Shown: one piece after another, positions 1 through 19,408 of the stretch
How the letters are laid out: every line of letters begins with the position of its first letter
Position numbering within the stretch: the first letter of the stretch is position 1
IMG/VR virus record: IMGVR_UViG_2734482565_000006
DNA length: 38,835 nt
Source of the DNA: a virus
Lineage: Duplodnaviria > Heunggongvirae > Uroviricota > Caudoviricetes
Reading direction: 5' to 3' (one strand)
The notes under the pieces: model-generated
The model's input: the letters and a program-made list of their open reading frames with translations, nothing else
Database searches by the model: none
Told to the model about the DNA's origin: nothing
Translations under genes and position numbers: made by a program

Positions 1-103
1 GCAGCCAGCTTTCCAGGGATTTCAGCAGCGGTTTCGTTTTCAACTGACGTTCGGCAAGGCGCTGTTTCAGCAGGAAGATGTCGTCAGAAGAGATGTCGTT
101 CAT
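1..103 (-). CDS. host gene, 5' end only (runs off window)
   Basis: Minus-strand ATG at 103..101 opens a frame reading MNDISSDDIFLLKQRLAERQLKTKPLLKSLESWL to the window edge; it lies outside the prophage and downstream of a hairpin at 104..127. No strong SD seen. Confidence 0.35.
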   Translation of the reverse strand, partial: MNDISSDDIFLLKQRLAERQLKTKPLLKSLESWL

Positions 104-152
104 AAGCCCGTATTTTACCGGGCTTATTCTGTGACAACCAGGATAAAGAGAT

Positions 153-180
153 TTACAGCATGGTCAGGGAGGTCAGCAGC
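153..180 (-). other. displaced 3' end of the host ORF interrupted by the prophage
   Basis: Minus-strand frame ...CTG CTG ACC TCC CTG ACC ATG CTG TAA (stop at 153..155) is in phase with the host ORF fragment at 38792..38835 when the prophage is removed at the CAGCAGC repeat. Confidence 0.45.
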
Positions 181-206
181 CGCTTAGGCTGTCTATAGCG
201 CGGCGA

Positions 207-277
207 TTTTTTTGATACCGATTTGCATTTCATTTGATACCGCTGAAAAACGCCGATACGCAACTTATTTGATACTA
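207..277. repeat. attR-side array of three closely spaced putative transposase-binding repeats (TTTGATACCGA-like)
   Basis: Motif TTTGATACCG at 211..220 and 233..242, and TTTGATACT at 268..276, in one orientation; the reverse complement recurs at the other prophage end. Confidence 0.6.
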
Positions 278-321
278 AATCGGCGCTTTTCTTTTGAGTT
301 TTAGAATGAGTTTTTAAGCGT

Positions 322-1059
322 TCATTCACTCTCTTTCAAACCAGTTTTAACTGTTTGTGGTTTTGGGTAAGGCTGGACTTTGAATAGCTTTGTGTTAAGG
401 CGTTTTCTGGCTCTCTTGTCCAGAAACCGGATGTAACGAAACTGACGGAATTTATGAACACTGGCTCTGTCGATATTAGCCCGCAGATGTTCACCTCGCT
501 GTCCTCCTCGTTTGATTGCATTCTTGCAAATCTCGTGATACCACTCGCCATCAAGTTCATAGAATGTTGTTTCATGACTGCCTACATAATCAAAATTGCT
601 TGCCTGGTACACGACACCAAGACAGCCACAACGCTCATCTGCAAACGACTGAACCCACTGCACCTGCGGATAAAGTTGTCTGATTAGTTTGAGCGCGTAA
701 CTGATTGCCCTTGATTCGGAGTTTCTCGGCATACAGTCATGCAGCCATAACCGGTTAAGCTCCATATATTCGCGGTTCTGCGTGCCAGTTACGACGCGTG
801 CACCATTGTTTGGATTAAGGGCATAACCCCATTGCATTACGCCAACCAGCTCCCGTTCTGAAAATATGCCCAGATGAAGGTAGGAATTATTTACGAAACG
901 ATGGCTGTAATGTTTATTGACGACGACCAGCCGGGCCAGCCAGCAACTTATTGTCTCAACCCGTAACTCACGGGAGCCATAACCGACGATATTGTCGTTA
1001 TAGTGAATAAGTTCAGGCGTGCTGATGATACGGGATGTAACTTGCTTTCTGTTCCCCAC
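322..1059 (-). CDS. mom: DNA modification protein Mom
   Basis: Located immediately downstream of and overlapping com at the Mu right end, as in Mu. The long ORF (322..1254) has no internal ATG near the com stop; the GTG at 1059..1057 is preceded by AAGGAA and gives about 245 aa. The start is inferred. Confidence 0.7.
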
Positions 1060-1213
1060 GACAGGATTTCCTTGTGTATGTGGGGTGCTCTGTGGCGCTC
1101 TGAGATGTGATTTGATTGAGGGTTTTACAGCGCGGACATTTAACTTCCAGATAACTGAAGCTGGCTCGTGCCAGTAGCTTGTTACAATGTCGGCACCGTA
1201 TGTTTCGATACAT
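1013..1213 (-). CDS. com: Com, zinc-finger translational activator of mom
   Basis: Translation [35 protein letters not shown]... matches the Mu Com pattern (IRCxxCNKLL...CPRCK, two CxxC pairs). It overlaps the mom 5' end. The start is taken at the internal Met of the 81-aa ORF. Confidence 0.8.
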
Positions 1214-1260
1214 GGCCGCATAACCTCCTGCTTTGTTGTTGATATCTTTATCACTCAATC

Positions 1261-1346
1261 GATCGACAAAAACGATCGATTTGATTTATTTAATTGATAC
1301 AACAAATAACACGAAATGTCATTAGCGAAAATTTATGAGTTTGATC
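1261..1346. promoter_or_regulatory. mom upstream regulatory region with three GATC (Dam) sites
   Basis: GATC at 1261..1264, 1274..1277 and 1343..1346, within about 130 bp upstream of com in an AT-rich tract. In Mu the mom promoter is controlled by Dam methylation of upstream GATC sites. Confidence 0.4.
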
Positions 1347-1469
1347 ACTAATTTTAAACGGTGCTGTAACGCATAAGTGCTGAATGATTGTACATTTGAA
1401 TACCGCAAAGCAAACAAATCAACTAATTTATAGAAGTCAATTGGTTAATTGCCAGCGTAAGAGGCTGCT

Positions 1470-1763
1470 ATGGACAATCATGTAACGACGAGAAATCGAA
1501 AAATGATTGAAAATGCGGAAATCTATAATGATTATTTTTCCGATTATTCAGATGCCTGCAAATACAGTTCGAGTGCGGGAGAGTTCATATGCTTCAACTT
1601 TTTTATTAAATCTTATGTTTTTCCTCCACAGCAAGAAGATGGAGGTGTGCCACCTCCTGAAATCACTTTGCACCGTATAGCCTCCGTCTCAATGATGGAG
1701 CAACAGGCTAATGAGCTGTATAGCATTCTGGGAACGATTCTACAAAAGCGTGAATCGGACTAA
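1470..1763 (+). CDS. hypothetical protein (AT-rich, divergent from com-mom)
   Basis: 97-aa ORF with AAGAGG 8 nt upstream of the ATG; low GC relative to the phage core; no recognisable motif. Confidence 0.5.
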   Translation: MDNHVTTRNRKMIENAEIYNDYFSDYSDACKYSSSAGEFICFNFFIKSYVFPPQQEDGGVPPPEITLHRIASVSMMEQQANELYSILGTILQKRESD

Positions 1764-1897
1764 TGATACCGGTTCATTTGCCTGCCCGGATGGGGAAGCA
1801 GGATTGACTGCTCCATAAGCAGCTATATTTCTGAATACGAAATACTATCCAGCGATTACATATGGCTGGATAGCGGCAAAGATGTTTTCATTAGTGT

Positions 1898-1925
1898 CAA
1901 ACCGGCAGAGGACACCACCGGTTTG
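1898..1925. terminator. hairpin between convergent genes (possible bidirectional terminator)
   Basis: CAAACCGG-12 nt-CCGGTTTG perfect 8-bp stem between the + ORF 1470..1763 and the - ORF 1931..2185; a second 9-bp-stem hairpin CTATCCAGC/GCTGGATAG lies at 1845..1873. The U-tract is weak. Confidence 0.3.
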
Positions 1926-1930
1926 TATTG

Positions 1931-2185
1931 TTACATCATGGTACTGTCAGTTCCGGGCTGAGCCGGGTCTGGTTGCTCTGGCTGCGCGTCGGTTTTCGGC
2001 TCATTATCAGCATCACTGGCCGCAACTGCTGGCCCAATAAGTTTTGCCAGCACTTCATCAACGTAAGTGTCGATTTGTGCCTCAAAATCCTTGCGGACCT
2101 GCGCTTTCAGCAACTTATTTACTTCACCGGAATACAGTGCCTGTTTTACCAGGTCTTCAGTGACGGTGCCTTTAATTTCTGGCAT
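1931..2185 (-). CDS. hypothetical protein (acidic, Pro/Gln-rich C-terminus)
   Basis: 84-aa ORF with a canonical AGGAGG SD 7 nt upstream of the ATG at 2185. Confidence 0.55.
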   Translation of the reverse strand: MPEIKGTVTEDLVKQALYSGEVNKLLKAQVRKDFEAQIDTYVDEVLAKLIGPAVAASDADNEPKTDAQPEQPDPAQPGTDSTMM

Positions 2186-2220
2186 GTATATCCTCCTTAT
2201 GCGGGAATAAAGCCCTGCAA

Positions 2221-2403
2221 TCAGGGCTGGGTCGGGTCTTTTGGGAGCGGAGTTACCTGCGCTGTTTTACTGAGTTTTTCAGCTGCTGCGTCCTCAATTT
2301 TGCGGCGAACATAATTTCTGATGGCCTTATAACCACCACTCACCAGATATAACGCACATACTGCCGTGCAGAAATACAATAAAATAAGCTGTAAAAATGT
2401 CAT
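2221..2403 (-). CDS. small membrane protein (one predicted TM helix)
   Basis: Start taken at the internal ATG 2403..2401, preceded by GGAGG. Product MTFLQLILLYFCTAVCALYLVSGGYK... has a hydrophobic N-terminal helix followed by a charged tail. Confidence 0.5.
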   Translation of the reverse strand: MTFLQLILLYFCTAVCALYLVSGGYKAIRNYVRRKIEDAAAEKLSKTAQVTPLPKDPTQP

Positions 2404-2499
2404 TATCCCTCCCAATTATTGACATGGTGTTGACACCGGTAATATCTGTTAGGTAAAAAGGTGCACTGCATTTTTTGCTTTGGATATAACGATCTTTTT

Positions 2500-2540
2500 G
2501 CCGCCGGTTTCTTGTTTTCCCTTACCGGCGGCATTTTTTT
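2500..2540 (+). terminator. intrinsic terminator (plus-strand orientation)
   Basis: GCCGCCGGT-15 nt-ACCGGCGGC stem followed by ATTTTTTTA, with CTTTTT just upstream. The T-tract is only on the + strand. Confidence 0.5.
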
Positions 2541-2547
2541 ATCCTGC

Positions 2548-4602
2548 TTACGCGTTATTCACTTCCACCACGATACTGTCAATCAGTACCGGGTAAGTCG
2601 CATTTTTAGTGATATCGGTCACGCGCAACTTGTCTGCCGTAAACGTGCCGACCGGAGACTGCGACAGCATGAATGGTGTCCCGTCCTTACCATCAATGAC
2701 CGGCGTCACCTCAATACTGTTGTTACCGGCAAAACGGAAGCCCAGCGTATGCCATTCGTTATTAAATGCGCCGAATGACCCCAGCTTCGTGTTCTGCGCC
2801 GTGTTTCCTTTGTGATACATCACGTTAAGGTCTGTGGCATCGCTCTGTACGTAGAACGATGCCAGCAGGTTATGACCGGCATTTCCTTCCAGAGTAACCC
2901 CTTGCGGCAGGGCAGAAACCGGCCAGTACAGCGCCAGTGCGTACTGATTAGCCGTAAGCGCGCCATCGAGTTTAAAACGACAACTGACAAGACCACCTTT
3001 ACCCAGCAGGTCCGCACCATTACCAGCATCATGCTCAAGGTACCAGGGGGCTCTTCCTGTTTCCTTGGTCAGTTTCATTGCCTTACCCCCGCTGGCTCCG
3101 GCATCATCCACGATTTGAGCCTTGCCACCTCCGGCAGCCCAACCCTGTGGTGTCAACCGTCCTTCAGACTCAGATGCCCGGTAAGCAAATAGCGTACTCA
3201 TCGTCGTGGTGTCTGCGGGTGGCGTGGACGGTTTTGATGGTGTATCAGGTGACGGCTTCTCATCCGGTGGTGTCACGGTCTGCCCACGCATCAGTTCAGC
3301 CGTGCGCCCTGCATGGAGCATAATAGCTGAGGCCAGACGGTCTGAAATGACGCCCCTGCGTGCCCATGAGCTGAAATGGCTGTCACGCTGTGTCGAAACA
3401 AAACTGCCCTGGGTTCGGGATGCTGCACCGTAATACCCGACAGCCACAATATCCGGGTCTTCCGCCGGAGCATTCGTTGGCGTGCTCTGTCCATTCTCAT
3501 CCGTCAGGAACGGTACAAAGAAAATTTTCTGTGCTTCCTTGCCTTTGTAGCCACCGTATACTGCCTCATATTTATCGGTGCCAGCGTTTTTCCAGTAATA
3601 CGTGGTATCACCGCAAATCCACGGCACCGTGGTGGCATTTCCACTCACGCACTGCGCAGCAAGCGGAGCCAGGTCAGTTCTGAACTGCTGAACCATGGCC
3701 GTGAATAAACTATTATGCTGCTGGCTTCCTGAGGCAAGGTCTGCCTCTCCCTGCATCCAGACCACAGCCAGAAGTTTGTTTTTCGGGTTTTTCGCCAGCG
3801 CGACTTTGGTGCGGCTTACCAGGTCCTGATACAGAGGTTTACCGGCCCCCCAGCGTGAAGAATCAGCGGAAGCACCGCTGGCCTCACTGAATGAGCCGTC
3901 GGCTCCAGTGGTGAATGCTGACCCGCCACGACAACAGGGCACCAGAAGTATCCCGGCATTCTGTGGGATATAGGGAAGCAGTTTTTTGGCAATATGCAAC
4001 CCCTGACCGACAGTCCCGTACTGGCCTTTTGCCAGATCAGCTTTCGGGTGGTTTATCCCGCTCATATCCTGAACATCATGCAGGCAGTGGTCTGCCGGAA
4101 TGATGTCGTTGTATGTACACGACGTACCGTTGGGCGTTACCGTACTGCGGCGTGCCAGTTGCTTAATGCGTGGGTCCGGGCGGTCAAACGAATCCGGTAA
4201 CGGCAGCCCCTCGCCGTAGGCCATGCCATTTGACTGACCCGCGAGAATGACAACAAAGTAATATTCCGGCTCTGAACTGCTGCCATTCGTGCTACCGGAA
4301 GGCCCGGCGTTATCCGGTGCATTCCAGTCGGAGGGCGTGAGCGTTCCGGCCACGTCAGATGTGATTGGAATGATGCCAGTCACGCCTGAACTGGTGATTT
4401 CTGCACTGGGATTACCGGATACCGGCATTACCCATAATGGCTCTTTCGTGCTGAAGCGGATCACGCAGTCTGCGAAGGTGATCCCCCCTTTATTACCCGA
4501 AGGGCGGAAAGGGCTTTCAATAAATGCCACCGTGCCACCGGCAACCTTGACTGAAAACTCTCCGGGCATGGCGGAGAGCATTTTCCACTTGGAGTCTGAC
4601 AT
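2548..4602 (-). CDS. SGNH-hydrolase / sialate-O-acetylesterase-like protein (prophage NanS-p-like) with C-terminal putative carbohydrate-binding domain
   Basis: 684 aa. A central block YFVVILAGQSNGMAYGEG ... VVWMQGEAD resembles the GQSN and QGE(A/S) motifs of SASA/DUF303 esterases. It sits as cargo between gin and com-mom; the SD is weak. Confidence 0.65.
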   Translation of the reverse strand: MSDSKWKMLSAMPGEFSVKVAGGTVAFIESPFRPSGNKGGITFADCVIRFSTKEPLWVMPVSGNPSAEITSSGVTGIIPITSDVAGTLTPSDWNAPDNAGPSGSTNGSSSEPEYYFVVILAGQSNGMAYGEGLPLPDSFDRPDPRIKQLARRSTVTPNGTSCTYNDIIPADHCLHDVQDMSGINHPKADLAKGQYGTVGQGLHIAKKLLPYIPQNAGILLVPCCRGGSAFTTGADGSFSEASGASADSSRWGAGKPLYQDLVSRTKVALAKNPKNKLLAVVWMQGEADLASGSQQHNSLFTAMVQQFRTDLAPLAAQCVSGNATTVPWICGDTTYYWKNAGTDKYEAVYGGYKGKEAQKIFFVPFLTDENGQSTPTNAPAEDPDIVAVGYYGAASRTQGSFVSTQRDSHFSSWARRGVISDRLASAIMLHAGRTAELMRGQTVTPPDEKPSPDTPSKPSTPPADTTTMSTLFAYRASESEGRLTPQGWAAGGGKAQIVDDAGASGGKAMKLTKETGRAPWYLEHDAGNGADLLGKGGLVSCRFKLDGALTANQYALALYWPVSALPQGVTLEGNAGHNLLASFYVQSDATDLNVMYHKGNTAQNTKLGSFGAFNNEWHTLGFRFAGNNSIEVTPVIDGKDGTPFMLSQSPVGTFTADKLRVTDITKNATYPVLIDSIVVEVNNA

Positions 4603-4687
4603 CGTCTTTTCTGCCTGTTTCTGAATTAAACAGAGTCAGAATAGCGACCGCTGAAAAATATGTGTTTTGCGGAAATTCAAAAAAGCG

Positions 4688-5260
4688 TCACGGTACTTTT
4701 GGTGACGGAGCTGGTGAGGCAGGAAAATAACGATAAAGGGTGGAAAGGCCAATATCAAATATCAGTGCGATTTGTTTACGGGACTCGCCATTAGCCAGCA
4801 AACGGGCGATTTGCTCCCGCTCTTTCTCTGTCAGTTTCTGAGGTCTGCCGCCATGACGCCCCTGAGCACGGGCAGCAGCAAGACCCGCGCGTGTACGTTC
4901 AATAATGAGTTCCCGCTCCATTTCCGCCAGCGCGCCCATTATATGGAAAAAGAAACGTCCCATGGGAGTGGATGTATCAATATTGTCCGTAATGCTGCGG
5001 AAGTTAACGCCGCGTTGCCGGAGTTCTTCTGTTAAAAGGACAAGGTGCTGCATACTGCGTCCAAGGCGATCCAGTTTCCAGACCAGCAGGGTATCCCCTG
5101 GCCGGAGTCGCTTTAATGCGCGTTTAAGTCCGGGACGCTCCCTTGTCTTACCGCTTATTCTGTCTTCGAAAAACAGCTCACATCCTGCACATTCCAGCGC
5201 ATTTCTTTGTAGCGCCGTATTCTGGTCATTTGTTGACACCCTGATATACCCAATCAGCAT
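4688..5260 (-). CDS. gin: serine DNA invertase Gin
   Basis: MLIGYIRVSTNDQ... is a resolvase/invertase N-terminal catalytic motif; 190 aa; C-terminal HTH; adjacent to an inverted-repeat-bounded tail-fibre segment. Confidence 0.95.
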   Translation of the reverse strand: MLIGYIRVSTNDQNTALQRNALECAGCELFFEDRISGKTRERPGLKRALKRLRPGDTLLVWKLDRLGRSMQHLVLLTEELRQRGVNFRSITDNIDTSTPMGRFFFHIMGALAEMERELIIERTRAGLAAARAQGRHGGRPQKLTEKEREQIARLLANGESRKQIALIFDIGLSTLYRYFPASPAPSPKVP

Positions 5261-5325
5261 ACGATTTCCTTATTATAAAAAGCCGGAATTGTCGCATGAG
5301 GAATAAAACAGAGTTAATCCTGGCT

Positions 5326-5351
5326 TTCCTGAAAACCTCGGTTTACGGGAA
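5326..5351. repeat. gix-like recombination site (gin-proximal)
   Basis: TTCCTGAAAACC TC GGTTTACGGGAA: imperfect palindrome around a central TC, similar to the gix/hix consensus. The inner arm begins a 71-bp inverted repeat (5337..5407) matching 6530..6600 with 2 mismatches. Confidence 0.6.
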
Positions 5352-5642
5352 ACGGTAAACAGGGCGGCGAATGCTCTGCCATCGGACGGCACCGCCGTTG
5401 CCGCGAATAGACTCGCCACCCCAAGAAATATTAATGGGGTTCCCTTTGACGGGACGCAGGATATCAGGCTGGGAGCAGAGAACAGGCAGGTAATGTACGG
5501 TGGGGCATATTACTCTGCGTACGGTAATGTTATGGCAGGCCTGCAGATTGACAGTAAAGTTGATGCTTCAAACGATTTTATAGCATTCAGACCCCTGCAA
5601 AAATTAGTCGGAGGTACATGGATTACGGTATCTCAGTTATAA
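5337..5642 (+). CDS. promoterless alternative tail-fibre C-terminal cassette (S'v), silent in this orientation
   Basis: No start codon. The frame [27 protein letters not shown]... matches residues about 175-200 of the S protein, then diverges to a different 75-aa tip ending TWITVSQL; stop at 5640..5642. Confidence 0.6.
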   Translation, partial: LGLRETVNRAANALPSDGTAVAANRLATPRNINGVPFDGTQDIRLGAENRQVMYGGAYYSAYGNVMAGLQIDSKVDASNDFIAFRPLQKLVGGTWITVSQL

Positions 5643-5693
5643 ATAGTCAGTAAATAATATATTTTAAAACAGATTTATTTCCAGGAGGATTTT

Positions 5694-6215
5694 ATGGAAC
5701 TAAAAAATATAACCCGTTATTATCCTGAAAATATGCCATATGGTAATAATGTTCAGTATTTCCAGAGTGAAGATGGTAAGGATTTCTACGAATCCCTGCC
5801 ATTATTCACCAAAAAATATAAACTTTGCATAACACCTGACAGCGGCGTTATCTGCTCAATATCACAGGACGCCTCGGCGCTGTATCCTGCGGGGTTTTCT
5901 GTGGTTGAGGTCGATGAACTCCCTGAAGGCACGGATATTTCAGGAAACTGGAAGTTTGATAATGGCATAATCTCCCGTATTCCGGTTAACTACGCAAGAA
6001 AACTGGAAGCAATGCGCCAGTCATATCTTAATCAGGCATATGAAAAAATTAATGACTGGAGAACGGAGCTACAACTGGGCACCATCAGCGATGAAGACAG
6101 AGCAGCACTTACCCAATGGATGGCATACATCAGTCAGGTGAAGAAAATGGAACTACCCGCCATTAAAACAGAAGCTGAATTTAACGCCATTAAATGGCCT
6201 GAGCAGCCACAGTAA
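5694..6215 (+). CDS. tail fibre assembly protein (U'-like)
   Basis: 173 aa with AGGAGG SD; Tfa-like composition and C-terminus; inside the invertible segment and in the inactive orientation relative to the late operon. Confidence 0.8.
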   Translation: MELKNITRYYPENMPYGNNVQYFQSEDGKDFYESLPLFTKKYKLCITPDSGVICSISQDASALYPAGFSVVEVDELPEGTDISGNWKFDNGIISRIPVNYARKLEAMRQSYLNQAYEKINDWRTELQLGTISDEDRAALTQWMAYISQVKKMELPAIKTEAEFNAIKWPEQPQ

Positions 6216-6218
6216 TAA

Positions 6219-6236
6219 AGAAGGCCGGAAGGCCTT
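6219..6236. terminator. hairpin between convergent U' and S genes
   Basis: GAAGGCC GGAA GGCCTTC 7-bp stem; on the minus strand it is followed by TTTATTA. Confidence 0.4.
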
Positions 6237-6246
6237 CTGAATATCA

Positions 6247-7128
6247 TTATATACTTGCAGCCGTCACCCATGCTCCATTTAACAGATACTGCAACGGCCG
6301 GTAATACACGCCGCCGACGTTATCTGCCGTATTCTTACCGACATCCTGTACTTTAATTCCGGTAAGAACATTGCCGCCCCCCAGATTCAGATCCCAGCTT
6401 TCCCATGTTCCGGGCATATGTGCGGTCACCGACCCCAGTCTTATGGCGGTTACTGTTCCTGATGAGATAGTGATATCCTGCGTCCCGTCAAAGGGAACAC
6501 CATTAATTGTGTGGGCATTTGCCAGCCTGTTCGCGGCAACGGCGGTGCCGTCCGATGGCAGGGCATTCGCCGCCCTGTTTACCGTTTCCCGTAAACCGAC
6601 GTTATCGATAAAAGCCCCTTTATCCGGAATGTCTGCGCCGTTCTGCTCCCTGCGCAGGTAACGGTTATCACCTTCGCTTTTGCTGTAAACATCCAGATTA
6701 TTACGGGCGGTTCCCTTATTCTCCAGGTCGGCGAGATTCTGATCCTTCGCCAGGGCATTAACGTCAGCGGGACCAAGACTGTTTTTTGTGGCAAGCGTCC
6801 CCAGACCAAGATAACCACGGGCCAGACGCTGGGCCTCCGCACCGGCATCAGCAATTTCTTTCAGGTTATTTTTCCGGGAAAAGGCATTCGCAGCGATAAT
6901 GGCTTTAATGGACAGCGTAAGCTGGTTTAACTGCGCCTTATCCGGCTGAATACTGGCTTCAGCCAGAATATTCAGCAGTTCGGCCTGGAGAATATTCAGC
7001 CAGTCCTGACCAATCCAGCTGATACCTTTTTGTCCGTCACCTTCGGTAAACCAGGTGGTGGTATTACTCTGCGCCGGTGCCAGCGCAGGCATATTCGCCA
7101 CGCCGGAATTATTATCAACATGAAACAT
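6247..7128 (-). CDS. tail fibre protein S (constant N-terminal part plus variable tip currently in frame)
   Basis: 293 aa; its start overlaps the gp48 stop; the C-terminal about 117 aa lie inside the invertible segment, and the gix-like site falls within the coding sequence. Confidence 0.75.
6586..6611. repeat. gix-like recombination site inside the S gene
   Basis: TTCCCGTAAACC GA CGTTATCGATAA; the inner half is identical to the reverse complement of the site at 5326..5351, with the central dinucleotide GA versus TC. Confidence 0.6.
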
Positions 7129-15297: not shown

Positions 15298-16800
15298 TCA
15301 CAAAATGAAACGGATCTGCGCGGCCATGAAGCGGAACTGGTTAACCAGATCCGGTGTACACATCACATCCAGACGGTTACGGTCTTTTGTGTTGCGCTCC
15401 ACGAGCAGATTCTTTTTAAAGGTGTCCAGATTTTCGACCAGTCCCAGATCCACCCATTCTTCCCCCAGCGAAATTAACTGAAGTTTCATGATCTCCGGTG
15501 TCACGATATTCTGACCGGCACGAACGGGCGTCCCGTCATCAGCCAGTTTATGGCGCGGAAAACGCTGCGTGATAAAGGTGCGCAGGGAATAACGCAGATA
15601 TGACAGGGTGTAGATGGTTTCCACATCCAGATAGCTGGGATCGATTTCGCCGTATGCATTCTGACGGTACATCGTCACCTGACGTTCAATCTGCACCACA
15701 TCCGCGGCCGCGACGGTCACCGTGGACATGCCGGTATAAAGCAGGCTGTTTCGCTCTTCCCGCGTCAGACGATCCGGTGCTTCAGGTGCCATACGGGCAG
15801 GCAGCGCCAGTGTCTGTAATGGTCGGGCCGGATCCGTTGACAGGGAGGGCGCACAGACCGCACAAATGGAGGCAGCCCAGACATAATCCGGCTCTGGTGC
15901 TTTAGGAATAGAAGTGCAGGTAAACAGGAAGTCATTACGGGATTCACCAAAACTGGTTGCCGTACCGAAGGTGCCGGTATGCGCCATCCAGACCATACCG
16001 TCCGACATTTTTACCGGTCCCCAGCGTTTCAGCAGTTCATCCGCCAGAATTTTGAGATTTGCCGCATCCTTATAGGGCATGACGATGTAGTTGTACTGAC
16101 GATTCCCCATCCCTGAGACGCTACGGGTGATATCGGGGTTTGTTGCCTTCTGTGTTGGCGCGACGAGCTCCAGCGTAAGACCGGCCGGTGTAGTTTCACC
16201 GTCATAATAGTTCACCCGTAAATCATGAGCTGAGCATTCACCGATAAAGCGGGCGTTAACCCCCATGCTGCCTTTAAGTCCTTCAGCATTATCACCACTG
16301 ACTTCAGCTGCGATAGCAGTGAATGGCGCATCAGTGTCAGCGTTAATGACCTTAGCCAGCTCTTCCACAAGCTCTTTACCTTTTTTCCCCTTACTGACGG
16401 GCAGGAGGTAACGGCGACCGCCGATGTAAACACTTAACACCCCGTCTGCCAATGCTGTTCCAATGATATTCATCACGCATGCCCTGGACTGACCTGTTCC
16501 AGCCCCCTGTGCAATGGCATATAACTCTGTGTCAGGGTTAATGGCGATAAATTCCTCTACCATCAGTGCAATCATGGAACCTCGCCCCCAGAGTTCTCTT
16601 GCTTGTGAAGCTCGGGTAATACGTACTGGTACATCAAGCTGACCGCGCCCCTGAATGGTAGTGTCTTTCATTGCAGCCTGACCAAACAACAGTACCGCCT
16701 GACGCTGTGGTGGAGTGCCGGTCACGGCCATTGAATTATTGATTTCAATCTGTACCAGCGGAATGCGATTGTTATCGCCGATATAATCAAAGTTAATCAT
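15298..16800 (-). CDS. contractile tail sheath protein (Mu L-like)
   Basis: 500 aa; ATGA start/stop overlap with the upstream gene; size and position of the sheath. Confidence 0.85.
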   Translation of the reverse strand: MINFDYIGDNNRIPLVQIEINNSMAVTGTPPQRQAVLLFGQAAMKDTTIQGRGQLDVPVRITRASQARELWGRGSMIALMVEEFIAINPDTELYAIAQGAGTGQSRACVMNIIGTALADGVLSVYIGGRRYLLPVSKGKKGKELVEELAKVINADTDAPFTAIAAEVSGDNAEGLKGSMGVNARFIGECSAHDLRVNYYDGETTPAGLTLELVAPTQKATNPDITRSVSGMGNRQYNYIVMPYKDAANLKILADELLKRWGPVKMSDGMVWMAHTGTFGTATSFGESRNDFLFTCTSIPKAPEPDYVWAASICAVCAPSLSTDPARPLQTLALPARMAPEAPDRLTREERNSLLYTGMSTVTVAAADVVQIERQVTMYRQNAYGEIDPSYLDVETIYTLSYLRYSLRTFITQRFPRHKLADDGTPVRAGQNIVTPEIMKLQLISLGEEWVDLGLVENLDTFKKNLLVERNTKDRNRLDVMCTPDLVNQFRFMAAQIRFIL

Positions 16801-17078
16801 CAGGACGTCCCCTTATCTGATGCTGCGGTTTTTTCAGCCACCGCCGCAGTTTTTTCTGCTACCGCTCCCGCTGGTTTTGCCGCCGCGCCGGTATTAGCAG
16901 TTGTGGCAGCCGGGGCAGGCTCCGCCGTTTTATCCACCACAATGACGTCGCCATCATTAAGACGGCGGCACCAGAACGGAGTGAAGGGTTTCTCTTCCCC
17001 GTCCTGAGAGAGCGGAGTCATCGTGTCGGGATCGCGGATCAGGCATCCCGGCGCAGGTTTAATAAAAATGGTTGTCAT
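16800..17078 (-). CDS. small Ala-rich protein (Mu gp38-like)
   Basis: 92 aa with a tandem AAVAEKTAA peptide repeat; position between the K-like and sheath genes. Confidence 0.55.
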   Translation of the reverse strand: MTTIFIKPAPGCLIRDPDTMTPLSQDGEEKPFTPFWCRRLNDGDVIVVDKTAEPAPAATTANTGAAAKPAGAVAEKTAAVAEKTAASDKGTS

Positions 17079-18460: not shown

Positions 18461-19408
18461 TTACAGATAATCCGCGACAACCAGCTCCAGCTTGCCCTTC
18501 ATCTCGTTAGAGACTGTGGCGTTACCGTCTGCGAACAGCTCGCGCTCCAGCAGCTGCACCGCCTGTTTTTCCAGCGAGGTGGGGACAACAATATGGGTGG
18601 GTTTGATGCCGAGTTTGCGGCCACCGTCAGCCTTAAAGTCACGCATGGCTGACCAGCCGTGCCACAGCGCATCCAGCGTCAGCGGTGACTGCATCATGTA
18701 GGCCATCTGCCAGAAGCCGTAGCCCACATTGCGACGGGCGGAAGCACCGAACACAAACTCGTTATCAGTAAACGCACGGCCTTCATCGACTTTTGTCTGG
18801 GCAACCAGTTCGGCTTTGCGGCGATCCTGATAAATCAGCGGTTTTACCGCGCGGGAGCAGTCAAGCAGATACCAGGCCGGGCCGCTGTAATCCGCCTGTG
18901 CACCGACAGAGCCGGTTTTTGCCACAAACATATTGCTGACCATCTGTGCATCACCGGAGCCATCCACTTTGGGGTAAACAGGGTGTTCGGTATCAAAGAA
19001 GTTCTGGCCGTCATAGCAGGCCGCATTCAGACCATCACGCAGTGCAGCAAAGACCAGTTCATCCGGTTGTGCCGCAGCGGCACGACCCATTTCCTGGAAT
19101 AACGGGGAGTAGATGCCGAGATTGTCGTCTTCAAAGTCATCGCGGCTAATGGCAACGGTGCCTTCAAAGGTTTTGTTCACGATGGCGTAGCCATAGGCTT
19201 TCATCTTCTCGATGACGCGGGAGCCGATCCACTCACGGAACTGCGGGAACTGCCCCAGCCAGCCGTAGGTGTTGGATTTCGAGGTGGACGGCACGGTCAT
19301 CGCAATTTTCTGGTACTGCGACGGAGCCATGGACATCCCGGCCTGAAAATCAGAACGGTAGCCCGTCATCAGGGCGGTGATCATCGCCGGTGTAATCGGG
19401 GTAGGCAT
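18461..19408 (-). CDS. major head subunit (Mu T-like)
   Basis: 315 aa; directly follows the protease/scaffold gene with an ATGA-type overlap. Confidence 0.85.
   Translation of the reverse strand: MPTPITPAMITALMTGYRSDFQAGMSMAPSQYQKIAMTVPSTSKSNTYGWLGQFPQFREWIGSRVIEKMKAYGYAIVNKTFEGTVAISRDDFEDDNLGIYSPLFQEMGRAAAAQPDELVFAALRDGLNAACYDGQNFFDTEHPVYPKVDGSGDAQMVSNMFVAKTGSVGAQADYSGPAWYLLDCSRAVKPLIYQDRRKAELVAQTKVDEGRAFTDNEFVFGASARRNVGYGFWQMAYMMQSPLTLDALWHGWSAMRDFKADGGRKLGIKPTHIVVPTSLEKQAVQLLERELFADGNATVSNEMKGKLELVVADYL

Follow-up and report, generated by a model that had tools for sequence, protein, structure and literature searches.

A predicted NanS-p-type sialate O-acetylesterase of Sp18-like, Mu-like Escherichia coli prophages carries an unrelated N-terminal domain in place of DUF1737

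Introduction

NanS-p esterases allow pathogenic E. coli to use the O-acetylated sialic acids of gut mucus. Existing descriptions treat them as lambdoid prophage cargo, chiefly that of Shiga toxin-converting (Stx) phages, in which nanS-p lies between Q/stx and the holin gene. The gene order in lambdoid prophages is nanS-p, DUF1378, DUF826, holin and endolysin, with DUF826 immediately before the holin gene. Here we describe a nanS-p-type gene in a Mu-like prophage, contained in the IMG/VR virus record IMGVR_UViG_2734482565_000006 (Duplodnaviria; Heunggongvirae; Uroviricota; Caudoviricetes). The window referred to below is the whole of this 38,835-nucleotide stretch, and positions are counted from its first letter.

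Several described systems are available for comparison. According to a review (PMC8065619), the NanS-p protein L0105 of phage 933W and its paralogs in EDL933 and O104:H4 were shown experimentally to de-O-acetylate 5-N-acetyl-9-O-acetylneuraminic acid (Neu5,9Ac2) and mucin glycans and to permit growth on Neu5,9Ac2. The SASA family to which these enzymes belong is defined by a Block I GQSN motif with its serine, an (H)QGE motif and a Block V histidine, and chromosomal NanS is a member without the Block V aspartate (PMC9487903). In the C-terminal domain carried by the phi24B protein (vb_24B_21, also gp84), the aromatic residues Y510, Y515, Y540 and F611 have been proposed to bind carbohydrate (PMC10462455). 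The same gp84 is an abundant protein of the phi24B virion, where hexamers of its N-terminal DUF1737, a fold described as a helix and three strands, sit on the capsid hexons and the esterase is cleaved off later (bioRxiv 10.64898/2026.04.10.717836). At the right end of phage Mu itself (NC_000929), gin runs up to 35673 and com from 35768 onwards, and no annotated gene lies between them.

Results

A member of the NanS-p family

The gene is read from the minus strand, begins with ATG and ends with a stop codon at 2548-2550; the open reading frame (ORF) listing of the window gives a product of 684 amino acids (aa). It is identical to the 684-aa ORF that RefSeq annotates in identical prophages of other E. 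coli genomes (WP_001284083.1). Judged from sequence comparison, the product is a genuine member of the NanS-p family, that is, an SGNH/SASA-type sialate O-acetylesterase. Its residues 110-428 match the solved structure of E. coli NanS (3pt5) with E = 1.8e-117, a value at which a chance match is not an issue, and residues 469-683 match the solved C-terminal domain of a NanS-p protein (6yp6) with E = 7e-98. Pfam assigns SASA (PF03629, E = 1.5e-13) and DUF6645 (PF20350, E = 7e-68). A tblastn search of 50,697 phage records returned a homolog in 349 of them, mostly Stx-converting phages, at about 65% identity from residue ~94 to the end; 933W L0105 is among the matches and is 65% identical. The initial annotation had proposed, by analogy with prophage NanS-p, an SGNH or sialate-O-acetylesterase-like protein and had suggested a search with the SASA and SGNH profiles. 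With PF03629 matched and profile, solved-structure and phage-genome comparisons in agreement, that reading now stands on homology rather than mere analogy. Scans of NCBIfam and PADLOC with the esterase, the DUF1378 and DUF826 proteins and a plus-strand ORF described below gave no meaningful match.

The two motifs from which the esterase was first suspected, GQSN(G) at residues 122-126 and QGEAD at residues 284-288, are present in the 684-aa ORF, which does lie between gin and mom as first annotated. All 16 aligned homologs share the catalytic motifs G122-Q-S124-N125, Q284-G-E286 and H409 without variation. The Block V histidine (H409) is present and the Block V aspartate is absent, as in NanS. 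The long beta-rich region seen in the C-terminal part corresponds to the lectin-like jelly-roll domain of NanS-p proteins (DUF6645, 6yp6), which is probably a carbohydrate-binding module; the four aromatic residues Y510, Y515, Y540 and F611 of the phi24B/933W protein align with Y554, Y559, Y584 and F654 and are all conserved. Both parts are under purifying selection, with ratios of non-synonymous to synonymous substitution rates between two old alleles of 0.09 in the catalytic and 0.12 in the C-terminal domain.

Comparison with chromosomal NanS (YjhS, 3pt5) shows a catalytic domain that is homologous throughout, with the same GQSN, QGE and histidine elements and without the Block V aspartate. 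NanS, however, has only one domain and about 326 aa, and its gene is part of the nan regulon, whereas the protein of the window is phage-borne and has in addition an N-terminal domain, two linkers and the C-terminal carbohydrate-binding domain. The likeness to lambdoid NanS-p proteins (L0105/z1466 of 933W, gp84 of phi24B) extends to the SASA and lectin-like domains, the catalytic motifs, the aromatic sugar-binding residues and the downstream DUF1378 and DUF826 genes, with an overall identity of 65% to 933W and of up to about 90% to other alleles. The differences concern the N-terminus, where DUF1737, the capsid anchor of phi24B, is absent, and the carrier, which is a transposable Mu-like myovirus.

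An unrelated N-terminal domain in the place of DUF1737

Where lambdoid NanS-p has DUF1737, the protein of the window has an unrelated beta domain of about 95 aa that is maintained by selection. In a search of 5.8 billion proteins the homologs fell into two architectures, one of about 647 aa consisting of DUF1737 (PF08410), SASA and DUF6645, the other of 680-691 aa, without DUF1737 and aligning across the whole query. The two classes can be aligned from an EPEYY motif at residue ~111 onwards, and from there their bodies are up to about 90% identical. Upstream of EPEYY, the Mu-type proteins have a conserved segment of about 97 aa followed by a low-complexity linker. Residues 1-116 matched no Pfam family at E <= 10, hence not DUF1737 either, and no PHROGs family covers residues 1-70. 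The possibility that the N-terminus is a diverged DUF1737 was rejected, as hhalign of the N-domain alignment against the DUF1737 alignment gave a probability of 0.6%. AlphaFold2 (AF2), run on the N-domain with a shallow alignment, predicted a compact all-beta structure, unlike the helix and three strands of DUF1737, with strands between residues 7 and 79 at a predicted local distance difference test score (pLDDT) of 70-86, and a disordered linker after it. Foldseek searches with this model gave matches at best of E = 0.012 in BFVD, to small uncharacterised phage proteins, and of E >= 0.06 in PDB; the fold matches were only weak and cupin-like, and no function can be assigned from them.

Between the allele of the window and the Sp18-type allele found in E. 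coli O157:H7, the proportion of non-synonymous differences in the N-domain is 0.24 and that of synonymous differences 0.79, i.e. saturated. As synonymous sites are saturated while non-synonymous sites differ far less, the N-domain is a real protein domain under purifying selection. A start of the ORF further downstream was rejected on the same data, since the N-terminal codons are kept at the protein level despite the saturation.

Relatives of the domain are scarce. Scanned exhaustively with HMMER, 1.84 billion representative proteins yielded four matches, of which two were fragments of the query, one was spurious and one was a true distant relative (P0126). The latter is 30% identical, is joined by a Pro/Thr-rich linker to an esterase with the GQSN motif and is encoded just downstream of gin in a Mu-like prophage of Salmonella, so that fusion and position are alike. 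A word-indexed search recovered fragments only, no relative was present in the GTDB species-representative genomes, IMG/VR contained the domain in only two E. coli allele groups, and no paralog was found among the other proteins of the window, such as the tail fibre and head proteins. Every occurrence of the domain was in a fusion with the esterase, within a Mu-like prophage of E. coli/Shigella or Salmonella, and the complete E. coli genomes carrying it (>230) have it intact.

A three-gene module shared with lambdoid phages and exchange of the esterase body

Mu-like and lambdoid/Stx prophages have nanS-p, DUF1378 and DUF826 in common as a three-gene module, as indicated by the same families of small genes and by DNA homology of 84% to lambdoid loci. 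This homology runs from position 4272 (residue ~111 of the esterase) past the stop codon and into the DUF1378 gene at 2345. The two small genes reported initially as inserted together with the esterase are thus the pair that follows nanS-p in lambdoid/Stx phages. The homology block includes a GC-rich hairpin with a 10-bp stem at 2497..2534, directly past the nanS-p stop codon, which is common to lambdoid phages and has a folding energy of about −22 kcal/mol (z = −4.5 sense, −4.8 antisense).

By segment, the body of the esterase is 92-95% identical to lambdoid alleles bearing DUF1737, with linker 2 at 100%, whereas its identity to the Sp18-type Mu allele reaches only 59-80%. The body of the Sp18-type protein, in turn, is nearer to 933W NanS-p (76-84%) than to the protein of the window. 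Because the body resembles lambdoid alleles more closely than it resembles the other Mu-type allele, alignment indicates that the catalytic and C-terminal parts are swapped across phage types by recombination, with the N-domain staying with the phage type.

In two IMG/VR contigs, L011 (754-9074) and L016 (3545-11865), a Mu-type nanS-p has Mu-like tail genes upstream and lambdoid genes downstream, namely lambdoid DUF1378/DUF826, endolysin, Rz and Nu1/terminase genes. These contigs may be products of recombination between Mu-like and lambdoid phages via their nanS-p paralogs, or assembly chimeras.

The Mu-like host element

The window comprises a complete Mu-like prophage: genes for MuA, MuB, a Mu portal, MuF, protease I, the major head protein gpT (18461-19408), the sheath (15298-16800) and the tape measure are present; the Pfam families Mu-transpos_C, Phage-MuB_C, Portal_Mu, Phage_Mu_F, Mu-like_Pro and Mu-like_gpT were all found, together with Gin, Com and Mom. 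The prophage ends on the right at about 187-194, the point at which homology to other genomes stops at differing chromosomal sites, and the ends of identical prophages sit at different loci in different genomes. The coordinates of the esterase gene, its domains and its neighbours gin, DUF1378, DUF826, com and mom, all of which are on the same strand, are given in Table 1.

The genes gin, com and mom have homologs in phage Mu (about 70-72% nucleotide identity) that are arranged in the same order and orientation. The gap between gin and com, however, is 94 bp in Mu, whereas it holds about 3.4 kb of cargo here, made up of the esterase module and a variable AT-rich segment. A Mu-proper-like E. coli prophage has gin directly adjoining com like Mu itself, which, together with NC_000929, confirms the initial observation that Mu has no gene between gin and com-mom. 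The GC content of the esterase gene (52-58%) is similar to that of the rest of the phage, and only the region at 1-2.5 kb is AT-rich.

Table 1. Positions in the window of the esterase gene, its predicted domains and its neighbours
Feature	Position	Strand	Basis
nanS-p-type sialate O-acetylesterase gene	2548..4602	-	PF03629 and PF20350; phrog_143, E = 1.7e-296; PDB 3pt5, 6yp6
Mu-like-phage-specific N-terminal domain, aa 1-97, predicted small all-beta cupin-like barrel in DUF1737's place	4312..4602	-	AF2, profile searches
Linker 1, aa 98-111, low-complexity, predicted disordered; contains the junction where lambdoid NanS-p homology begins	4270..4311	-	pLDDT <50 from aa 83
SASA/SGNH catalytic domain, aa 112-430	3313..4269	-	3pt5 match; motif residues invariant in alignment
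Linker 2, aa 431-468, Pro/Ser/Thr-rich	3199..3312	-	length varies in alignment; 100% identical to some lambdoid alleles
C-terminal lectin-like jelly-roll domain, aa 469-684, DUF6645	2551..3198	-	6yp6; PF20350
gin-type DNA invertase gene, upstream neighbour	4688..5260	-	Resolvase and HTH_7, phrog_125; 70% nucleotide identity to Mu gin
DUF1378 small protein gene, 60-64 aa, hydrophobic N-terminus	2221..2415	-	PF07125, E = 1.2e-31; phrog_494; RefSeq start 2403
DUF826 small protein gene, 84 aa	1931..2185	-	PF05696, E = 6e-16; phrog_311
com	1013..1213	-	Zn_ribbon_Com Pfam family; RefSeq annotation
mom	322..1059	-	Mom Pfam family; RefSeq annotation

Beside gin, an invertible tail-fibre segment (5273-7128) carries a C-terminal tail-fibre fragment and an assembly gene on the plus strand, opposite to the expressed fibre gene. 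Comparison with an Sp18-type prophage revealed an inverted match of about 136-147 bp at 5331-5466 and 6458-6603, probably the gix-bearing repeats.

On the other side of the module, the AT-rich segment at 1323-1901 (40-45% GC) separates DUF826 from the com/mom promoter region. It contains on the opposite strand an ORF of 97 aa (1470..1763, plus strand; WP_000571916.1) with no match in Pfam, PHROGs, NCBIfam or PADLOC. As the DNA of the Sp18-type prophage at this place is unrelated and contains a different ORF, the segment looks like a hot-spot for cargo. Just upstream of com, a GATC-containing palindrome, ATCGATCG-N7-CGATCGAT (1257-1281), is 92% identical in the Sp18-type prophage and may be part of the Dam-sensitive mom control region.

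A standing feature of the Sp18-like lineage

The gene order gin, esterase, DUF1378, DUF826, variable segment, com and mom recurs in the 34 IMG/VR contigs with the Mu-type gene wherever the contig extends, except for a few loci without detectable gin and for L011 and L016 with their lambdoid genes downstream. The Sp18-like prophage of E. coli O157:H7 has the same order, including a variable ORF before com. Its esterase (WP_010917876.1, 679 aa) shares the Mu-type N-domain, SASA and DUF6645, but is a separate old allele that is 67-68% identical overall and 60% identical in the N-domain. Among 5426 complete E. coli genomes, N-terminal coding DNA of the window type was present in 28-32 and that of the Sp18 type in 205, so that the latter allele is far commoner. 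The com-mom genes of the Sp18-like lineage occur in 226 genomes, consistent with the sum of both N-domain types. Given this match of genome counts and the conserved gene order, the module is a standing feature of the Sp18-like lineage of Mu-like prophages and not a sporadic insertion.

In some gin-less relatives, namely L023 (2640-2860), L030 (7795-8015) and L016, about 150 bp of the 3′ end of gin remain directly upstream of nanS-p and are adjoined by the tail-fibre assembly gene, which implies a deletion of gin. In O157:H7 FRIK2533 (L008), an Sp18-like prophage with the sialate esterase is inserted in dcuC, immediately beside the nanRATEK sialic-acid catabolism operon, a position that Mu-type transposition has probably hit by coincidence.

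Discussion

The explanation that accounts best for the locus, and which we regard as likely, is that the gene encodes a sialate 9-O-acetylesterase of the NanS-p family which stems from the module shared with lambdoid phages, has had its N-terminal domain swapped and is released by lysis. For its substrate, the timing of expression, the route of release and the role of the N-domain, we infer the following. Ser124 of the GQSN motif would serve as the nucleophile and His409 as the base, with an oxyanion arrangement of the SASA type formed by Gln and QGE. By analogy with the experimental record of the family, the enzyme would remove 9-O-acetyl groups from free and mucin-bound sialic acids, that is, from Neu5,9Ac2 and O-acetylated sialoglycans such as mucins, while the lectin-like jelly-roll domain would keep it on the glycan. 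The 684-aa sequence contains neither a signal peptide nor a hydrophobic N-terminal stretch, and hence the substrate is presumably reached upon lysis of induced cells, as for other NanS-p proteins. Most likely, the protein is made from rightward transcripts of the phage and freed when the prophage lyses part of the population, which would make N-acetylneuraminic acid available to the surviving lysogens.

As the gene lies between gin and com/mom, and not in a lambdoid late region between Q/stx and the holin gene, Q-dependent late transcription cannot apply. It is on the late-gene strand, separated from gin by a spacer of 85 bp, and the simplest guess is that transcripts read through from gin or the tail-fibre operon. 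A consensus promoter scan found six promoter-like sites where 7.4 were expected, none of them directly upstream of the esterase gene. The hairpin past the stop codon has a U-run on the plus (antisense) strand only and is flanked by A-runs on the sense strand. The locus was initially described as a candidate moron. The esterase is cargo carried with two small genes; the promoter of its own that the term implies was not found in the scan.

A few points weigh against the explanation given above. The review (PMC8065619) reports experimentally shown esterase activity on Neu5,9Ac2 and mucin sialoglycans for lambdoid alleles only. The full-length AlphaFold model from the single sequence has a pLDDT of 33 and is unusable, and the AF2 model of the N-domain rests on only ten closely related sequences. 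Finally, a scan of positions 1-5700 for sigma-70 promoters and sense-strand terminators showed no enrichment over shuffled sequences.

The location of the enzyme is a further question. By analogy with DUF1737 on the phi24B capsid, the Mu-type N-domain could dock the esterase on the Mu-like virion, be it on the capsid, the sheath or the baseplate. Such tethering, which we consider possible and put forward tentatively, would be compatible with release of a NanS-p-family esterase by lysis, as it concerns only where the enzyme resides. In support of it, precisely the part that attaches gp84 to the capsid has been exchanged, and for a domain confined to Mu-like phages. The body is traded with lambdoid alleles while the N-domain is specific to the phage type; a folded, selected domain followed by a disordered linker has the layout of a tether; and the gene lies just past the tail-fibre and G-segment genes on the late-gene strand. 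On the other hand, the N-domain has no sequence or fold similarity to known decoration, tail or adaptor proteins. DUF1737-type NanS-p proteins occur in prophages with quite different head genes, i.e. prophages with lambda-like Nu1/GpA terminases and, apparently, a P2-like phage, so that the type of N-domain is not simply matched to the type of capsid. Moreover, the major head proteins of the window prophage and the Sp18-type prophage are 90% identical, but their N-domains only 60%. In a co-divergence test between these two prophages, divergence comparable to that of the N-domain was confined to the sheath (71%), a 92-aa ORF (64%) and the tail-fibre genes, which indicates nothing definite. A somewhat more doubtful generalisation would be that NanS-p proteins are modular decoration enzymes, with the N-terminal domain as an exchangeable docking module matched to the carrier phage.

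Two side observations may be added. Between window positions 15298-17078 and the Sp18-type prophage L046, the sheath (71%) and the adjacent 92-aa ORF (64%) stand out from virion proteins that are mostly 90-99% identical; the immunity region of the two prophages is about 42% identical, a mosaic pattern. In the P2-like phage vB_EcoM-569R5 (Peduoviridae; L045, 1-1251), the lysis genes are closely followed by a gene for a NanS-p homolog, whose N-terminus looks like DUF1737 by eye only; if it is one, the DUF1737 type is not confined to lambdoid phages.

It is unlikely that the protein acts instead on the bacterial surface, de-O-acetylating O-antigen or capsule, e.g. O-acetylated polysialic acid, in place of host mucin sialic acids, and thereby aiding phage adsorption or altering the surface of the lysogen through receptor modification or lysogenic conversion. 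The initial annotation had offered such substrates, and a virion-associated depolymerase, as alternatives, and the comparisons speak neither for nor against them. Action on the bacterial surface has been raised for NanS-p in general (PMC8065619), a carbohydrate-binding module is present, and fusions of SGNH esterases to tail proteins exist, as illustrated by a weak match to the tail family phrog_25867 and by a match of 29% identity to a minor tail protein of an Arthrobacter phage. However, the catalytic domain is 65-95% identical to enzymes acting on free Neu5,9Ac2 and mucin glycans and matches the catabolic chromosomal NanS at E = 2e-117. The gene is neither inside nor fused to a tail-fibre or tailspike gene, and since the protein has no signal peptide or membrane anchor it could not reach the lysogen's own surface.

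That the N-terminal ~100 aa are a functionless leftover of recombination, a fusion to a local reading frame that gave a relocated NanS-p a junk leader, is very improbable: the segment lacks detectable relatives outside the esterase fusion and its predicted fold is generic, but it is under purifying selection, is predicted to form a compact beta domain, has been kept in the same architecture and position at 60% identity between the two old E. coli allele groups and at 30% in Salmonella, and is intact in every carrying genome counted.

Much of this enzyme was known before. The family, its activity, the C-terminal domain and the place of the module in Stx phages have been described, and the gene has been in RefSeq since the O157:H7 genomes under the names "DUF6645 domain-containing protein" or "sialate O-acetylesterase". 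In the searchable literature, we found nothing linking NanS-p with Mu-like or Sp18 prophages. Three points did not surface there: a Mu-like lineage with the module fixed, a non-homologous N-domain in exchange for DUF1737 and an esterase body recombining across phage types.

For E. coli, this means that a second, unrelated phage type carries the NanS-p module, in about 4% of complete genomes, including O157:H7 and, among other Shiga toxin-producing serotypes, O145:H28 and O111:H8. The Sp18-like copy should therefore be taken into account when nanS-p copies per strain are counted and when knock-outs are designed. As the gene body recombines with lambdoid alleles, nanS-p is also a potential site of recombination between Mu-like and lambdoid phages. 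If the Mu-type domain were only a neutral or stabilising appendage, the finding would amount to an ordinary relocation of a known cargo gene. If it does dock the enzyme, Mu-like myoviruses of E. coli and Salmonella would bear a sialoglycan- or mucus-modifying enzyme on their particle, and the ~95-aa domain would be a new virion-binding fold. The replacement of DUF1737 offers an experimental handle on whether phage NanS-p acts as a free public good or stays bound to the virion. Nothing about the esterase itself is out of the ordinary; the swap of its N-domain is a small but concrete lead on the attachment of phage NanS-p to virions.

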